A DNA stretch of 59,431 nucleotides, filler included, from Xylographa opegraphella (lineage: Eukaryota), in NCBI GenBank assembly GCA_022813865.1. It is 10 parts of 10 records of this genome, joined end to end, with 100 filler letters (N's around TTAATTAATTAA, not from the genome) between each part and the next. Parts side by side here need not be neighbours in the genome. Positions count along the whole stretch, not along the records: positions 18,122 to 24,048 come from JALDZX010000224.1; 9 more parts are not named here. One strand, written 5' to 3'. The translations under genes and the position numbers were made by a program. The notes under the pieces are model-generated. The model did no database searches and was not told the origin of the DNA. It was given only the letters and a program-made list of their open reading frames with translations. Below are positions 2,101 through 24,212 of the stretch, piece after piece; the stretch's first letter is position 1, and each line of letters opens with the position of its first letter.

Positions 2101-3986
2101 TTAGTCTAATCCGTCAGGATCATATGCCATTTCTGTCCCATCAACGTCTGGATAATAGTCAATAATTCCGCCCGGCTTGATGATCCCTGTTCGATCATAC
2201 CACGTCCGCGCCCGCAGATATGGATCAAGCCGCCAGTAGCCTTTTCGTAACTCTTCCGCGAGCGAATTTCTCTTCTGCTCAACTCCTGTATCTGTTTGTG
2301 GCGCACTTCGTATCCACTTTTGCGTTGCATTTTCAAAGTCCTTGACGACTGTTGCCCGCTCATCTAGGAGGCGATGGCGAGTGGTATCGTCCTTCATTCT
2401 CTCATTCTCATCAGGCTGTGGCTCGGTATATGAAAAGGTCCAAGGATCGTCACCACCAAGCTCGGTGGGTATATGGTTAAGGGAGATGAAATGCGAGAGC
2501 TCATCGATGGTTTTAGTGAAGTGCACTTTGTTAGCAACGACAGGATCAAGCCAGCCTTTAATGATGGTCCAGATACCTTTGAGGATCGAACTTAGATAAT
2601 TGATTAATGGAGGATATACAAGCTAGTGGCTTACCTTGAAACACCCATGGGGATTTGTGGACAAGCACCACCCCGAGACTTTCAGGATAGTTTGCTTCAA
2701 AGCACTTGATCATAAATTTGACGGGCGCGTAGTCCTTTAGAGATTCAGCAATTGCAGAATATAAAGAGACTGCTTTCTTACCATATTTGCCATTGAAAAG
2801 CCTGTCATATCGAACACGATTGTCTGCCAAATATGTTAGTCTATAAAACTTGATGCACCAGGGAACGTACAGCAGAATCCACTGGAGGCGACAAGAGAAG
2901 CCTCGCGGTCTCAATTATGTGCACAGTAACCCTCTCTAGACTGGCTTCGCTCTGCTCCCCCGCTCTGTGCAATCTTGCGCGAACCACGCAAATTGGTCGA
3001 CCCTCCTTGTCGCATCCGTGCAGGAAACTTTTCCCCAGCCTCATTATCTTCATGAAATCCTCCCCCTCTTTCTTCAAGGGCCCTGTCGACTCCGTTGCAT
3101 CCTTGTAAGCAGCAGCTTCACCATTATACATGATATCGTCATCAACGTGCATGTCGTGGGACCGCCATTGCATCGTGGACACCATCATGACGAGTGCTTT
3201 CTCGACATCCCATTTCCTGGCTCGCAGAAAACGAAGTAACAGTCCATCCGGATGATCGTGTTTCACCATTCTCCAGAATGCTTCTCTAAGGTCTTGAGGA
3301 GACTGTGTTGCAAGAGCTTGTTGAAACTCCTTTGTCTGACCATACTTATCGTCGGGATCCGGTATGCTGCTATGTACGCTCACTTCGTCTTTATCTCCCG
3401 AGTGGCCTTTTCTCCGCCGAAACAGACCCTTTCTCTTACTCTTCTTCTCGGAATTGAGCGTGTTGGTGTGCTCCGAAGGATCATCCTCATTGTCGCCATT
3501 TATACTGCCGTCAACACATCCTCGGGCATAAACTTCGCCTAGATCAAGAACGCCAAAGACCCTAAGTGTTGCTTTCCAGAATTCTTGAAGCTTTGCTTCC
3601 TGTTCGACGGTTAAATTCCCAGGTCTACCAGGTGGTAAAGTGCCGACCATGGTCCAGCTCTCTGCCGCTTCTATAGGCTTTCTAAGCTCCTCTGCAACTG
3701 TATGATAGGATTGGTCCTGGGATCTGCGATATACAACCATCGAACCACCGAGTAGGCAGCCACAAAGGATGAAAGTGATTGCGCTCAGTCCAATGTCACT
3801 CTTTTGCGTGTAATGGAGCCTTGCTTGGGAATGACTCTGCGAACACGAGCGGGCGCCTATTAGAATCCGACAAGTAAGCTTGTGGTATGATGGCTGGTTA
3901 ATGGGCAAACTCGGATTGATTTTCACAGTAAACGGAGCAACATCGGAGGGTGGATATAAACGCCGAGCGAGGAGACGCGAGGACAT
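2101..3986 (-). CDS. CSR1: CRAL-TRIO/Sec14-family phosphatidylinositol transfer protein, CSR1-like (4 exons)
   Basis: Motifs PGRPGNLT, DHPDGLLLRFLRARKWDVEKA, FDMTGFSMANM|DYAPVKFMIKCFEANYPESLG, WLDPVVANKVHF and IPTELGG, joined across GT-AG introns near 2870-2823, 2780-2735 and 2634-2577. Alternative start at 3650. Confidence 0.88.
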
Positions 3987-5956: not shown

Positions 5957-6056
5957 NNNNNNNNNNNNNNNNNNNNNNNNNNNNNNNNNNNNNNNNNNNN
6001 TTAATTAATTAANNNNNNNNNNNNNNNNNNNNNNNNNNNNNNNNNNNNNNNNNNNN
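5957..6056. other. Artificial contig-joining spacer (44N-TTAATTAATTAA-44N)
   Basis: Identical 100-nt spacer, with stops in all six frames, also at 11994-12093, 18022-18121, 24049-24148, 30047-30146, 35979-36078, 41898-41997, 47788-47887 and 53642-53741. Intervening contigs decrease monotonically in length. Confidence 0.98.
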
Positions 6057-18121: not shown

Positions 18122-18185
18122 TTCTTTACCCATATATTCTGCTAGAATGACCACTGCGCTTCAGTACCCATCGTACCTTTCAACA
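18122..18185 (+). mobile_element. Family E LTR, 3' fragment (contig-terminal)
   Basis: Matches the last ~64 nt of LTR 58464-58646, ending TTTCAACA. Confidence 0.8.
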
Positions 18186-18234
18186 GAGTATTCAAAAAAT
18201 TTCATTAAATTAATAAAAAATTTAAAATTTTTTG

Positions 18235-18417
18235 TGTTGAAAGGTACGATGGGTACTGAAGCGCAGTGGTCATTCTAGCAGAATATATGGGTAAAGAAGT
18301 GTGTTGTATTAGCTATGAACAACTACGAGACTATATGCTCGCGCACTAGCGTCACCGGGCCTACGGCGGCCCGAGCTCTCGCTATCCTGCAGGCAGGCCG
18401 GGACTCTATTTCTAACA
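18235..18417 (-). mobile_element. Solo LTR, family E (183 bp), TSD TTTTG
   Basis: TG...CA; reverse complement of 58464-58646. TTTTG at 18230-18234 and 18418-18422. Confidence 0.9.
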
Positions 18418-18984
18418 TTTTGAATAGTTTTAAAATTTTGTTAAATAAAATTATTAAATTTTTCAAAATAACGAAAACGTAAAGAAATCGAAAAGGGTTA
18501 TTTTTTTAATATTTATATAATTTTTAATCAATATTATATTTTAATTAAATACAAACGCTATTTTTGTTAATTTAAATATAAATTAATTTGTAAAGTTTAA
18601 AAATAATATTTTTACGAAAATCTCCTTTATTTTTTATGTGTATCGTTTTTTGTATAAAATTTTAATTGACGAAAAATTTGCGACGACGTTACGTACGTAA
18701 TTTATAATTATTTTATTTTATTTTATTTTAATATATATTTCTGCTTTATATTTATATTATTATTTGCTAAATTATAAAGACTTTATTCTATAAACTACGT
18801 ATGGTGCAAAAGTGCGAAAGTTCATGATCGGGTTATTACGGAGGATTACATTTTAGCGCCGTAATTCCATAGGTCCTAATCCTCCACCTAGCGAGGCCTT
18901 GGATATCCCTCTGGTGTTCACGAAGGGAAATGAATCAAATGATTACATTGGGCTCAAATTGATCGTCACTATCACGCAGCCTCG

Positions 18985-20012
18985 ATGGCACGTCGGCCGG
19001 TGGTCTGTACTTTCCTGTACCCATCAGCATGCCTGGCTCATATCCGTTGCTTTTCGAAAGGCGCGGTCCAGTCAGCTGGCGGGATGAGAGCTATGCCTCA
19101 AAATCGTCCTCGCGCACAGAAGAGCATGAAGGTCGCCGCTCGGGAGGCTATGAAGGGCAACGCCTTCTCAAGTGACTTTGGGCTCCTTCCAGGTACCTGG
19201 GTTGAATATGATCCCAAGTGTCACCATATCCCTAATGAGCGACAGGAACCTTCGTGATGCCAAAAGTTTCCAGGAGACCTTCGATATTCAGGAGTACTCG
19301 GCTGCGCCTGCAGCTCGAATGGCACAGACTAAAAATGCGCGTGACAGACTTTGGAGGGTGCGTCTATATCCTCTGGCCGTCACTTGAGTTAAAGTTGCGT
19401 AAGTTTTTCATGCTAACATTTCTGTGACCGTCCTAGGGTCTTGTACTACAAATGGGGCATTACTAAGAAACCGAATCAAAGGCCCAAGTTGGCGTTACGG
19501 AATACAGCACGCTTAGCACAGGCCTTACATACGCAGATGTATACTGCTTTTGCCGAGTACGTGGACTCCTCTTCGTGACGAAGCCAAGGATTTGTTGCTG
19601 CTGCTTACCCAGATCGTGGTGCGAAAGTGGTGATCTCGCAATTCTGAAGAAGACTTGCTCTGATGGCCTTTTTGCTTCATTCCAGTCCCGTATCGCGTCT
19701 CGTCCGGCAAACCAGAAACTTCGTTGGACTCTGCACCAATATATCCATAGACCTCGGGTCGTGTCGCACCGGGCTGTTGTGCTGCCCATGGCCAAAGGTG
19801 CCGCACTTCGACAGGCCGTTGTTGCACTGCACTCCCGACAGAGCCTAGCCAATGTGAAGGCGGGTGGGGAACTGACGCCAGATACCGGGGAAGTAAAAGA
19901 GATCAAGGAATATGTCGTTGTGCAGCGACGTATGTGGAAGGAACAGGAAGAGCCGTGGATGGTTTGGGGAACCATAGAAGAGAGTGATTGGCCAAGCACA
20001 TCTCCGGAGTGA
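18985..20012 (+). CDS. Mitochondrial Tim44-like domain protein (Mba1/mL45-like), multi-exon
   Basis: Arg-rich presequence-like N-terminus, then DFGLLPG|TFVMP, ALHTQMYTAFA|GDLAILKKTCSDGL, RQAVVALHSRQSL and KEYVVVQRRMWKEQEEPWMVWG. Confidence 0.75.
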
Positions 20013-20275
20013 TCAGCTGGCGTGAAGGAGACCCGAATTGTGGATAGACAATTGGAGGTCAAGGTCAAAATCAGAAGATTACGCGACATTTACCTACATT
20101 CAGTGTGGTTGAGCTAGCTAGATGTATTTAGAGAGGTTTGGCCATAGCGGTGTTCCAGTATGTACATAATTGATTCCACTACGAAGCCATTTTACCACAA
20201 CTCAGTCACTCTTCGGCCTTGACGGGGCCATCTCAACACACGCAATAGCCTGCTGCTGGCTTGAAATCCGTGGTG

Positions 20276-22811
20276 TCAGAAGAACTTGCCTTTGATGTCA
20301 GTAGTGCCTTGGGTATAGACCTGCTCGCGATCGGGGTCTAGTCCCTCAACTTCGGCGTGAGTGCCCGTGTAGAAGCTTGGACCGGCTGGAGATGGTCGAT
20401 CGAGGGCTTCGAAACGATGGCCCTTGACCTTGGCTTGGCACCACTGAAAGCAAAGCCGCAGGGCCAAAGCTCCAAAGCCCCACAACAATCCACCAACAGG
20501 TGCCGCGACAAAGGCGCCTACACAGTGTGTAAGCCAGCGTTCTTTCTTGACCTATGCAGAAAGCGAGTGGTGCATTACGTACCGAAGGCACTCCAGTCAT
20601 TCCCGTAAAGTCCATTCTCCAGCAACAACAGGTATGCACCATTTTGCGCGCTTCCATAATAGATGGTTCCAAAAATGAACACCGTCAAAAGCCCCCCCAA
20701 GCCTCCTACAACAACTTCAAATCCTCTCCACCAGTAGCACTGCTCGTTCAAGCCGATAACTAGAACGGGTATAGAACTTGCAGAAACCAGGTCAGAGATT
20801 AAATATATCTGCAGCACGCTAGGGCTTTCCAGTGCCACTACCACTACGGGTACGATGATAAGAACAACGGCAATCCGGATCCACCAGAAATTTAGCTTGT
20901 TTCGGAATAGGTCATTGCTGCCAGTGGAGACCATACCGGATTGCAGACTGTCGAAAGCCGCCGTACTGAGCGAGACCGTCATGACTAGTACGATACCGAC
21001 TACCCATGCAGGGAGCTGTCCGAGCAGCAAGAAAAATGCAATACTTCCCGACTGAGGTGGGTCCCCGGGGTATGCACCAGTCCAGGCAGCGAGCAATCCG
21101 GTGGCACCTACCAAGCCAAGAATCAAGGTTATGGCAACGGTGGCAATGGAAGTTCCAATCAGAAGATCCTGGTCTGTTTTCGAGGCAAACGTACGCATCC
21201 AGAACCCGGAGATAAAAAAGTCGTTGGTGACGACGGCCACCGGGAGAATGTAAATAAGCTGCCATCCAAGAAGCGAGGGTTCGAGAAGTCCAGAGGCAGC
21301 AACGAGCGACGTGTCGATGTGAGTTTCGACACCAACGGTAACGACGGCCAGGATTATAAGACCAACCACCATAAACCCTTGGATATTATCGGTAATAAAA
21401 GAGATTCGGAAGCCTCCCAACGCTAGTGGATGTTGCGACCTGTTAATTACCGCGATCTTGTAGAATCTAAGAGATTGCGATATTGATACATATACTGCTT
21501 ATCACGAGCAAAATGGGAGGAGTTGGAATTGGTGCAAAGAGGAGGTGCAAAATGGGTGGCACTGGGAGTGGTAGCAAGGGATGGCGAGTATCATGACACG
21601 GGTGTAGCTCAACTCACATGTATAAATCGTGGTAACAGCACACTCCACAATAACAGCAGGTAAACCATCAAGTCCGGTCAAGGCGTTGATAATTTGCTGG
21701 AGGGCAGAAAGCTCCGCTACCATGTACAGGAACAGTGTGACCAGCCTGTCAGATCTTAGCACCAGGAACACACGATGTTACCGAAGGATACCAACGTAAG
21801 AAGGCTAAGATAGGAGGCCGTTATGATGCCATATCTTTGCCTGGTCCACTCGGTCAATACAAAACCCTGTGGGCATTTTCGTCGGATGATTGGGCCTAGG
21901 AGTCCGAAAACCATGATTGGAAGCGATGATGACAGGGTATAGACCACGAGACCCTGTACACCGGCTATGGTAGATATCTGTGGGTAAGAGAATAGAATAC
22001 CGGATCCTAGTGCTATAGAGGTACAACATCTGCCGTCAGCAAACCAGGCTAGAAGACAGCGAAGGGTAAAGAAGCGGCAGCACGTTCCCCACGCAAGCAT
22101 TAACTTGATCGAGTGTTTACGGTGCATTCTCAGCTTCGTGGCGAGAATACCCTGCAGATCTCTGTCGCGTTTGGCGAACAGTTGGATACACAGAAAAATC
22201 ATCACCGCTCAGCACCCGTAGTGAAGCCGCGCAGCGCCCGAATCGAAGGTGGCTATGTCCATAGGAAGCAAAGCTCCATAACAAGCTAAGCACCATAGCA
22301 TACTGTGAGCTGGACACAGCAATCCTCGAAGCAGGAAACCGCATTGTTTCAGCTAATACGAACCTGCTCATGATGTTTATTCAGAATCGCACAGTCAAGT
22401 CTGCTTTCGACTTTACACTGTGGCCAGATGTCGGAAGCCTCAAACTGGGTGCTACCGCTTCATTCGACAATCGCTTCTACACTCACCCGATGCAATGAAG
22501 TTCAAGGCGAGAGGAAATGCTACATAGAGAGATCAGTCTCTGTGTGGAAGGACCAGACAAGTTGCGTAAGCGGTAGCTGCTCGACAACAAACACTGCTTT
22601 GCGGATCTAACCCTTCTGCGTGCGATTGCTCGCCAGAAACTCCGACTTTGACTGATGTCTCCAGTGCCATGCAACTATCAGGCCAGTGACTCTGCCCGAT
22701 ATTCGTCAGCCAGCCGTAGTCATCTCGCCGTCACTTCTAGAGGACGAACAGGAAAGCACCATAAGTAAGGTAGATGATGGCATTGGATGCTTGGTAGGAA
22801 GGGATCCCCAT
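20276..22811 (-). CDS. Sodium:solute symporter (SSS) family transporter, NCU01977/DUR31-like, probable thiamine transporter
   Basis: Spliced start MGIPSYQASNAIIYLTYGAFL|VTGLIVAWHWRHQSKSEFLASNRTQK|AFPLALNFIAS|ALGSGILFSYPQIS...FVLTEWTRQRYG...LFLYMVAELSAL...GGFRISFITDNIQG...STAAFDSLQS. Many TM helices; TPP aptamer in intron 3 (22013-22486). Confidence 0.88.
22074..22230 (-). promoter_or_regulatory. TPP (thiamine pyrophosphate) riboswitch, intronic
   Basis: Minus strand reads CAC-UACGGGUGCU-(long P3)-AGC-UGAGAAUGCA-CCGUA-AACA-CUC-GAUC-AAG-UUAAUG-CUU-GCGU-GGG-GAAC-GUG. P1, P2, UGAGA J3/2, P4/P5, the UAAU loop and GCG are all present; a branch site GCUGAC (22035-22040) follows. Confidence 0.95.
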
Positions 22812-23520
22812 AGCGCGAAGGACAGGTAATATTTGCCAAGCTGAAGCAATATTCAACGATAATCTGTGCGTGATTTATTTATCTAAACTCCGTACCCAGG
22901 TAACGGGTCACACCCTAGAAGCGGGCCACCTCAATCGTGATTCCCTCACCAAAACCTACGTTTTTTGAAAAATGATTAAAATTAAAATTGTTGATTATAA
23001 AACGCAGAGTTTCAATTTTATAATAATTTCAATATATATGTTATTGATAAATATTGGCAATATTATATTACAATTTTTATATTAAAATTAAATATATCAT
23101 TGATAAATATTGGCAATATTATATTTTAATTTTTATATTAAAATTAAATATAATATCGATCTTGTTATTGTATAAATCAATCTTTAAATTTATTTTAATT
23201 ATATATATATTATTTATATAATTATTAAAACTCAAGTCAAAGTAAAACAAATTATTTCAATACAGAAAAATTGAATATATAAATAAAATATAAATAGAAA
23301 ATGTATATATTTATTAACAAAAAGAATTCTTGCTTAAAATTTAAAATTTTACAAATCGCTCAAAAAGTATGCTTTTTGCGTATTCAATATATTTAACACG
23401 TTCAGTACGTTCAGTGAAAAAATTTGCTTTTTACATTTTTAGCAAATATTTTATATATTTAAAATACGTTTAAAATACGTTTTTAAAATTGAATTTAGAA
23501 TAACTAGAAATAAAATAAAT

Positions 23521-23711
23521 TGTTAATTGGTAGAAGCATCACTTGCTGGTAGGGATAAAGGAATACCTGAAGGCTAGTTCTATTTATGTATAGCGTAGTT
23601 CAGTACTAGCGTAGGAGGTATATGTCACGTTCACGTGGCCTATACCGAACTTCACCGAATATACGATTACTGTTGCCCCCGCCCTGATCCAAATACACGT
23701 GCCTTTTAATA
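23521..23711. mobile_element. Solo LTR, family B, TSD TAAAT
   Basis: Near-identical to 4687-4877; TAAAT at 23516-23520 and 23712-23716. Confidence 0.88.
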
Positions 23712-23988
23712 TAAATTATAATAAACAATTTTACATCGACGACATCAATTCTTGAAAAGTGTTCAAATAATTATTCGTATTTTACGAATATGTATATTGT
23801 TAAATTTACGTTAATTTCTTTCGCGTTGAAAAATCTGTTAAAGGTTTTAAATTCAGAACATTTAAGTTAATTGAATATTGATTAATAATTAAAAAATCAT
23901 AAAAGTTATATAAATATACTTATTAATAATATTAATATAACTTTTTTATTATAAATTCCTTTTTTAACAGCGAAAATTAAATAGTTTT

Positions 23989-24048
23989 TGTAACGGCGTG
24001 TTACATGGCACCTTAACAAGTGATAGACGGAACGGGACTAAAGCGCGT
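23989..24048. mobile_element. LTR end fragment, family C
   Basis: Identical to 11932-11991. Confidence 0.75.
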
Positions 24049-24148: not shown

Positions 24149-24212
24149 CCGGACACGCTTTAGTCCCGTTCCGTCTATCACTTGTTAAGGTGCCATGTAA
24201 CACGCCGTTACA
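24149..24212. mobile_element. LTR end fragment, family C (inverted)
   Basis: Reverse complement of the family C terminus. Confidence 0.75.

Follow-up and report, generated by a model that had tools for sequence, protein, structure and literature searches.

A probable NCU01977/DUR31-type TPP riboswitch in a coding-region intron of a sodium:solute-symporter gene of Xylographa opegraphella

The DNA analysed here is a stretch of 59,431 nucleotides (nt) from Xylographa opegraphella, hereafter the window, and its minus strand carries a seven-exon gene for a sodium:solute symporter whose third intron contains a thiamin pyrophosphate (TPP) aptamer. An initial annotation had proposed a eukaryotic TPP riboswitch hidden in this intron. 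That reading is supported by our analysis, and the aptamer lies inside the long intron at a place from which splicing could be steered. We consider it highly probable that the element is a riboswitch of the NCU01977/DUR31 type, located in the third, coding-region intron of the symporter gene of an ascomycete that resembles lichen fungi. The annotation had missed the symporter coding region that hosts the element and a long-range pairing between two intron segments, α and α′. It had also missed that such riboswitches were already described; calling it hidden overstated its novelty, because the same arrangement is reported from many fungi (PMC3597705, PMC5997356, PMC5882874). The window is a composite of ten pieces of ~5.9 kb each, joined by nine linkers of the form N-run, TTAATTAATTAA, N-run (at 6001, 12038, 18066, 24093, 30091, 36023, 41942, 47832 and 53686; none of 100 shuffles reaches nine matches). 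The piece with the gene spans 18122–24048, and therefore nothing beyond that range is usable as genomic context.

The symporter gene and its third intron

The gene model was built from the reading frame and the splice signals and was checked by alignment to homologs. Splicing of the model gives an open coding sequence of 1602 nt for 533 amino acids and removes introns of 58, 92, 474, 50, 195 and 65 nt, the third being, as had been claimed, far longer than the others. Removal of 22486–22013 keeps the reading frame, and the resulting junction NFIASA|LGSGILF is identical to that of annotated orthologs. The model protein is 81.4% identical to the 532-residue ortholog P0001 over 532 aligned residues, end to end, and 68–78% identical to other orthologs. 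Exon 6 alone as query returned 371 homologs. The 120 listed are fungal, mostly of ~530 residues, and most have PF00474; many of them are named 'urea transporter', and the closest among them (80–85%) come from metagenome bins of Teloschistaceae lichen fungi. Proteins annotated as urea transporters are 66–81% identical to the model protein, which places the host gene in the NCU01977/DUR31 clade. The homologs include proteins of Microsporum canis, M. gypseum, Coccidioides posadasii and Paracoccidioides brasiliensis, all four listed as carriers of the NCU01977-type riboswitch (PMC3597705), and a Sordaria protein is 68.5% identical; the 120 homologs listed do not include the N. crassa protein.

The features of the locus are the following.

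20276–22811, minus strand: host gene of seven exons (splice model) for a 533-residue NCU01977/DUR31-type sodium:solute symporter
22811–22750, 22691–22612, 22519–22487, 22012–21796, 21745–21618, 21422–20583 and 20517–20276, minus strand: exons 1 to 7
22013–22486, minus strand: intron 3, 474 nt, phase 1, GUGAGU...CUGAC...UAUAG, which carries the probable riboswitch
22449–22461, minus strand: α, GAAGCGGUAGCAC, with its start 25 nt past the 5′ splice site, holding AGCGGUAGC and an in-frame TAG at 22454–22452
22356–22365, minus strand: conserved block AGGUUCGUAU of the 47-intron alignment, a predicted internal 5′ splice site cag|GUUCGU (G of GU at 22363)
22074–22230, minus strand: TPP aptamer, from letters read on that strand, the RF00059 alignment, the core pattern and model R1
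22230–22221 and 22083–22074, minus strand: P1, GCGGC-UU-CAC and GUG-CU-GCCGC, read from the sequence
22220–22216 and 22122–22118, minus strand: P2, UACGG and CCGUA, read from the sequence
22213–22133, minus strand: P3, 81 nt, with its tip hairpin at 22177–22165; G and U stand between P2 and P3
22133–22128, minus strand: J3/2, CUGAGA, read from the sequence
22113–22110 and 22091–22088, minus strand: P4, CUCG and UGGG, read from the sequence
22107–22104 and 22097–22094, minus strand: P5, CAAG and CUUG, read from the sequence
22103–22098, minus strand: L5 loop, UUAAUG, read from the sequence
22094–22092, minus strand: J4/5, GCG, read from the sequence
22071–22083, minus strand: α′, GUGCUGCCGCUUC, the 3′ strand of P1 plus 3 nt, which pairs with the P1 5′ strand or with α
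22035–22039, minus strand: CUGAC, conserved in the intron alignment and probably the branch point; the AG of the 3′ splice site (22014–22013) follows 21 nt downstream

The branch-point consensus of fungi is CURAY, and by this consensus CUGAC at 22039–22035 is the likely branch point. Every aptamer element named in the initial annotation is present on the minus strand where it had been placed; the limits it gave coincide exactly with the ends of P1 (22230 and 22074), and its P3 tip, UCGC-CAAAC-GCGA, was found at 22177–22165. P1 closes the P2–P3 and P4–P5 arms, and all pairs of P1, P2, P4 and P5 are standard in the R1 alignment. When a core TPP pattern is drawn solely from the conserved capital letters of the Rfam consensus and their spacing, the 59,431-base window has a single match and none of 100 shuffles has any. 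In the alignment to RF00059, the consensus letters of the pyrophosphate arm and CUGAGA are all present with correct spacing. The ligand-contacting motifs named in PMC5882874 are GAGA(U) for pyrimidine recognition in J3/2, the GCG of J4/5, two Gs 18 nt apart, and UAAU in L5. The window has the GAGA of J3/2, the GCG, Gs at 22110 and 22092 (18 nt apart) and the UAAU in L5; the base after GAGA is A here and U, A or G in orthologs, so that only GAGA is invariant in the orthologous class.

Three annotated orthologs, P0027, P0064 and P0077 (Microsporum canis, Paracoccidioides brasiliensis and Sordaria sp.), carry extra residues precisely at the NFIAS|LGSG junction, and in two of them these residues include AA(T/S)LR(V/A)L, which is the P1–P2 5′ strand translated in the frame of the window. 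Judging from these sequences, gene callers have evidently read into the riboswitch intron in all three.

Orthologous aptamers and the α–α′ pairing

Metagenome contigs were searched once with the exon-6 alignment, giving 80 loci (L001–L080). Both exon ends could be located in 63 of these, all with the intron at the same codon position, and together with the window they provide 50 distinct introns (49 of them metagenomic). Aptamer-bearing introns are 370–648 nt long in the orthologs; two others measure 233–234 nt. In one locus, L075, the 5′ boundary of the intron was mis-set by the regular expression and the intron starts GCAGCG. From 26 orthologous aptamers, with the window excluded and with anchors cleanly found by regular expressions, we built a covariance model, R1; L058 was omitted from its alignment because MAFFT had misplaced its 5′ half. 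RNAalifold on the raw MAFFT alignment recovered P2–P5 and not P1, and the R1 structure (P1–P5 and three P3 helices) was therefore set by hand from one reference row.

R1 has a single match in the whole window, at 22233–22068 on the minus strand, with 138.9 bits (E 7.9e-39) and an end-to-end alignment. It finds the aptamer in 68 of the 80 orthologous loci. Of the 12 that it misses, ten have DNA that ends before the aptamer position, with fewer than 410 nt on the upstream side of the exon-6 match; in the other two (L061 and L068) the intron is short and lacks an aptamer. In an alignment of 50 distinct aptamers (A4), standard pairs occupy 91.5% of cells, compared with 82.2% in shuffles (none of 500 reaches the observed value) and 29–43% when the partners are slid. 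Changes on both sides occur in 17 of the 38 pairs, and the window aptamer keeps every invariant column of the ortholog alignment.

The distal part of P3 (22187–22157 in the window; A4 columns 73–83 and 177–186) forms a helix-loop-helix, AUC-CAA-CUxx with xxAG-AG-GAU, that is kept among orthologs, and P3 helices 6 and 7 have compensatory changes in all 8 pairs. In published work P3 is called variable, and its truncation is tolerated in N. crassa (PMC5882874, PMC3597705).

In the riboswitch of N. crassa NCU01977, which lies in a long coding-region intron, the 3′ shoulder of P1 (α′) is reported to pair in the absence of TPP with a distal segment α (RGCGGYRRY) near the first donor (Li & Breaker 2013, PMC3597705). 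This pairing promotes complete intron removal, whereas thiamin shifts splicing to the downstream donors S2–S4, after which stop codons truncate the protein; α is commonly less than 60 nt from S1 and α′ less than 60 nt from the acceptor, and the pairing is conserved in 16 of the 18 species that have the riboswitch, in most of them over 11 or more contiguous base pairs (bp) (PMC3597705). Mukherjee et al. 2018 class this mode as 'Type II' (PMC5882874).

The window has the same arrangement. AGCGGUAGC within α is an exact match to RGCGGYRRY, and α begins 25 nt from the donor. It is complementary to α′ at 13 of 13 positions, with one G-U, so that the 3′ shoulder of P1 can form 13 contiguous bp with it. 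The end of α′ at 22071 is 58 nt from the 3′ splice site at 22013; the initial annotation had placed the aptamer about 60 nt before that site. No other 13/13 partner of α′ exists on the RNA-sense strand of the 59-kb window, and shuffles of the first 110 intron nt reach 13/13 in 10 of 20,000 cases. In a ligand-free fold of the whole intron, the α–α′ pairs have probabilities of 0.96–1.0 and the P1 pairs 0.0.

Among orthologs the pairing was tabulated in 48 distinct introns from RNAduplex placements with UGCCGC as anchor. Of these introns, 36 have a contiguous helix of 9 bp or more and 45 have one of 6 bp or more, the exceptions being L065 and two decayed copies, L030 and L032. Three consecutive positions 3′ of P1 have pair types UA 21/CG 6, CG 30/UA 7/AU 2, and UA 18/GC 9/CG 3/AU 2. 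These changes are not explicable by P1 and therefore give independent support to the long-range helix in a wider, partly lichen-derived sample. An RNAduplex-energy control with mononucleotide shuffles was dropped; it discriminated poorly for GC-rich 30-mers, with shuffles matching several loci and the window, and was for that reason replaced by the count of contiguous complements and by the anchored pair tables.

Proposed mechanism, counter-evidence and alternatives

An NCU01977/DUR31-type riboswitch, with α–α′ control of 5′ splice-site choice, is an existing kind of riboswitch and already worked out in Neurospora. By analogy with the work in N. crassa and Candida, the aptamer would bind TPP, and thiamin would determine the splice choice and be the probable substrate of the transporter. 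At low TPP, P1 would be open and α′ (22083–22071) would pair with α (22461–22449) just past the true 5′ splice site. This would loop out ~365 nt and bring donor 22486 beside acceptor 22013, favouring removal of the whole intron and synthesis of the 533-residue transporter. At high TPP the ligand would lock P1–P5 and α′ would be sequestered in P1; the distal donor would then lose its advantage, and internal donors would be used, the prime candidate being cag|GUUCGU at 22363, or the intron would be retained. The consequences for the reading frame follow from the sequence: joining the 22363 donor to acceptor 22013 leads to a stop at codon 69 and a 69-residue product, as does every donor downstream of 22452, and the TAG inside α ends the reading of unspliced and partly spliced RNA. 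Since all predicted high-TPP products retain the TAG at 22454–22452, translation would end after 69 residues and transporter synthesis would fall.

Several observations weigh against this interpretation. The RF00059 match at 22163–22069 on the minus strand scores only 31.7 bits against a gathering threshold of 54.3 (E = 2.9e-4 in a 701-nt search, E = 0.025 in the whole window), and the cmscan alignment is in the wrong register for the 5′ half, which is forced onto the 3′ part of P3. The isolated aptamer of 171 nt folds with z = -1.5, 17 of 200 shuffles being as stable, and its plain minimum free energy (MFE) fold puts CUGAGA in a local hairpin, not in the TPP fold. The α–α′ duplex has an energy of -28.1 kcal/mol, which is not exceptional; shuffles average -21.4, and 2 of 30 are equally stable. 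The intron, at 474 nt, is shorter than the published 550–650 nt (PMC3597705) or 650–900 nt (PMC5882874). The exons of the window submitted singly gave no Pfam match at E ≤ 0.01. Finally, 15 of the 17 covarying pairs in A4 lie in P3, with P1, P2, P4 and P5 nearly invariant, and A4 was fitted to the model structure, which favours that structure.

As to these points, the near-invariance of P1, P2, P4 and P5 means that their support comes from conservation and not from covariation. Introns of 370–500 nt also carry α–α′, which suggests that the published length ranges are too narrow rather than that the mechanism is absent. The full-length orthologs P0001, P0017 and P0077 pass PF00474 (SSF) weakly (34.4, 43.2 and 25.5 bits; cut-off 22.8), as fits the divergent DUR31 clade described in PMC5997356.

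The Rfam score needs more comment, because a significant RF00059 match had been proposed in the initial annotation as the check that could refute it. When run, this check gave no match for the window at the curated gathering threshold with any of 4227 Rfam families, but the sub-threshold RF00059 match does lie at the site, and its alignment is right for CUGAGA, the P2 3′ strand, P4, P5 and the P1 3′ strand. The window shares with RF00059 the two-arm architecture, CUGAGA, the P4/P5 arm and the L5 letters, and differs from it by its sub-threshold score, the lack of a P3a hairpin and a P3 of 81 nt. The low score arises because a long P3 insert and the lack of P3a both cost bits under the model, and the wrong 5′ register has the same origin. 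None of 20 orthologous loci passes the gathering threshold, whereas in E-value mode 18 of 18 match at 31.4–49.1 bits, several of them in the correct register with P3 inserts of 47–65 nt. The gathering score is thus an operational cut-off and not a biological feature, and it excludes the whole orthologous class. As a refuting test it gives a false negative, since the curated threshold fails although the aptamer call is right.

A MAFFT alignment of 47 distinct aptamer-bearing introns has five conserved blocks: the donor, α, AGGUUCGUAU, the aptamer and CUGAC (22039–22035). AGGUUCGUAU is the sole conserved block between α and the aptamer, lying 108–255 nt from the donor and 59–220 nt before the aptamer. 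GGTTCGT occurs in 45 of the 50 distinct introns; L045 has GGTCCGT, and the motif is absent from L030, L032, L061 and L068. The block is found in 45 of the 46 distinct introns with an intact aptamer and in none of the four with a decayed or missing one. AGGTTCGT is present in 57 of the 63 metagenome introns, compared with 7 occurrences in 468,111 nt elsewhere in the loci on the same strand. A conserved alternative donor is not mentioned in the Results of PMC3597705, whose supplementary intron alignments (Figs S6–S7) may already show one, and a literature search on the donor motif gave nothing relevant among the matches listed.

GUUCGUA resembles the P2 3′ strand and can form 7 pairs (two of them G-U) with the P2 5′ strand UACGGG(Y), a pairing that is present in the MFE fold of the whole intron of the window. 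In the ensembles this pairing has a probability of ~0.2 for the window; of 46 introns, 11 have 0.25 or more and 25 stay under 0.02. When the aptamer helices are enforced, the mean unpaired probability of the donor is 0.35, as against 0.22 in the free ensembles, being higher in 27 of the 46 introns, lower in 2 and unchanged in 17. From this pairing and from the co-occurrence of the block with intact aptamers we tentatively suggest, while thinking it rather doubtful, that AGGUUCGUAU may be a second, undescribed arm of the expression platform, in which the P2 5′ strand of the empty aptamer would hide the decoy donor and TPP would release it to U1. Such an arm would explain why the unusual UC at donor positions +3/+4 is fixed across fungal classes. 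In the exceptional L045, whose motif is GUCCGU, a C-G pair with the P2 5′ strand takes the place of the U-G pair. Counting against such an arm, the donor:P2 pairing is not robust in the predicted ensembles, and single donor mutations are reported to have little effect in N. crassa, where no single alternative donor was critical (PMC3597705). Both the donor and its P2 partner are invariant, and covariation is therefore uninformative about this arm. By eye we saw no conserved pairing of the decoy-donor region with P4/P5 of the kind found in NMT1.

The same donor observations bear on a different mode of action, in which the element would be a genuine TPP riboswitch working mainly like those of NMT1 and THI4 (Types I and III of Mukherjee et al.): part of the unliganded aptamer would mask donor 22363 and TPP would unmask it, α–α′ being secondary or irrelevant in an intron of this shorter length. 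In favour of this mode, no other element outside the aptamer is as conserved as the internal donor block, which can also pair with P2 and is on average more exposed in the holo-constrained ensembles. The intron length of 474 nt falls between the published Type III (200–400 nt) and Type II (650–900 nt) ranges (PMC5882874), and Li & Breaker report a residual TPP response without α (PMC3597705). However, α–α′ is intact, positioned as published and covarying, the donor:P2 probabilities are low in the window and in most introns, and in N. crassa no individual alternative donor proved critical. We regard this mode as improbable.

Even less probable, in our judgement, is that the window holds an evolutionary relic, shaped like an aptamer but with TPP binding or splicing control lost and the intron removed constitutively. 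Such loss does occur in the gene family. L061 (528–760) and L068 (421–654) have at the same position an intron of 233–234 nt without aptamer and without the GGUUCGU donor; both retain an alpha-like AGAGCGGTAGC near the 5′ end of the intron, and from their sequence they look like cases of riboswitch loss with a remnant of the platform. L030, L031 and L032 have a decayed aptamer at 3305–3467, in which CUGAAG replaces CUGAGA, L5 is shorter and a G of the P2 5′ strand has become C. The window copy, however, keeps all invariant aptamer columns, α, the internal donor and the branch site, and the decayed copies differ from it in lacking the GGUUCGU donor, in an α–α′ pairing of only 4–5 bp and in the lowest full-length R1 scores (79.2 bits). 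The idea that a long intron gathered short TPP-like motifs by chance, for which the sub-threshold Rfam score and the unremarkable isolated fold might speak, is already refuted by the absence of the core pattern from 100 shuffles, the R1 score of 138.9 bits and the same intron position in 68 loci, and its probability is negligible.

Some further features of the sequence lie outside the gene. The piece with the gene starts with a perfect inverted repeat of 64 nt (18122–18185 and 18235–18298, with a 49-nt spacer), which draws sub-threshold matches to eight unrelated miRNA-precursor families, three of them on both strands; matches of this kind mark it as a generic hairpin. To the eye, the final ~60 nt of the piece (23990–24048) resemble for the most part a reverse complement of the ~60 nt with which the next one opens (24149–24212). 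The inverted repeat and this complementarity of piece ends look like assembly fold-back or graph artefacts. Over the whole window, blocks of ~19–28% GC alternate with blocks of ~45–59% GC at a 2-kb scale, and the gene is flanked on both sides by AT-rich sequence within its piece.

Relation to known systems and biological meaning

The NCU01977/DUR31-type riboswitch proposed here resembles NCU01977 itself in having a TPP aptamer with a long P3 in a long coding-region intron of a symporter annotated as 'urea transporter', an RGCGGYRRY α within 60 nt of the first donor that forms at least 11 bp with the P1 3′ shoulder, an α′ within 60 nt of the acceptor, and premature stops predicted from the use of downstream donors. 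It differs in intron length (474 nt, compared with 684 nt in N. crassa and 550–650 nt typically), in the distance from α to α′ (~365 versus ~530 nt), in residing in the third and not the second intron, and in having an in-frame stop inside α itself. The N. crassa element has been studied experimentally, while that of the window is predicted from its sequence. Our comparison uses the published descriptions of the N. crassa intron, in which the conserved block may correspond to one of the donors S2–S4.

Donovan et al. 2018 (PMC5997356) demonstrated thiamin transport by DUR31, the Candida ortholog, and it is because of this work that we call the window protein a putative thiamin importer. In C. 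parapsilosis and C. albicans, thiamin is reported to repress the functional isoform; the Candida intron has 351 nt and its authors thought a long-range interaction unlikely, whereas the window has a clear α–α′ (PMC5997356). With the NMT1 and THI4 riboswitches (Cheah et al. 2007, as cited in PMC3597705 and PMC5997356) the window shares an intronic fungal TPP aptamer and alternative 5′ splice sites that decide expression. Those riboswitches are described as lying in introns of 5′ untranslated regions, masking a proximal donor through P4/P5 and acting through upstream open reading frames, in contrast to the coding-region intron and the long-range pairing of a P1 strand seen here.

A literature search on TPP riboswitches and lichens gave no paper with a title or abstract on lichen fungi. 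Because the RF00059 threshold misses the orthologous class, automatic annotation of fungal and lichen genomes will not report such switches. By analogy with the systems above, thiamin uptake in this fungus would be under feedback control by TPP. For biology at large the finding has little weight, being one more copy of the best-studied eukaryotic riboswitch arrangement. The AGGUUCGUAU donor is the one strongly conserved intron element beyond the published model, and it bears on the unexplained part of the N. crassa mechanism.

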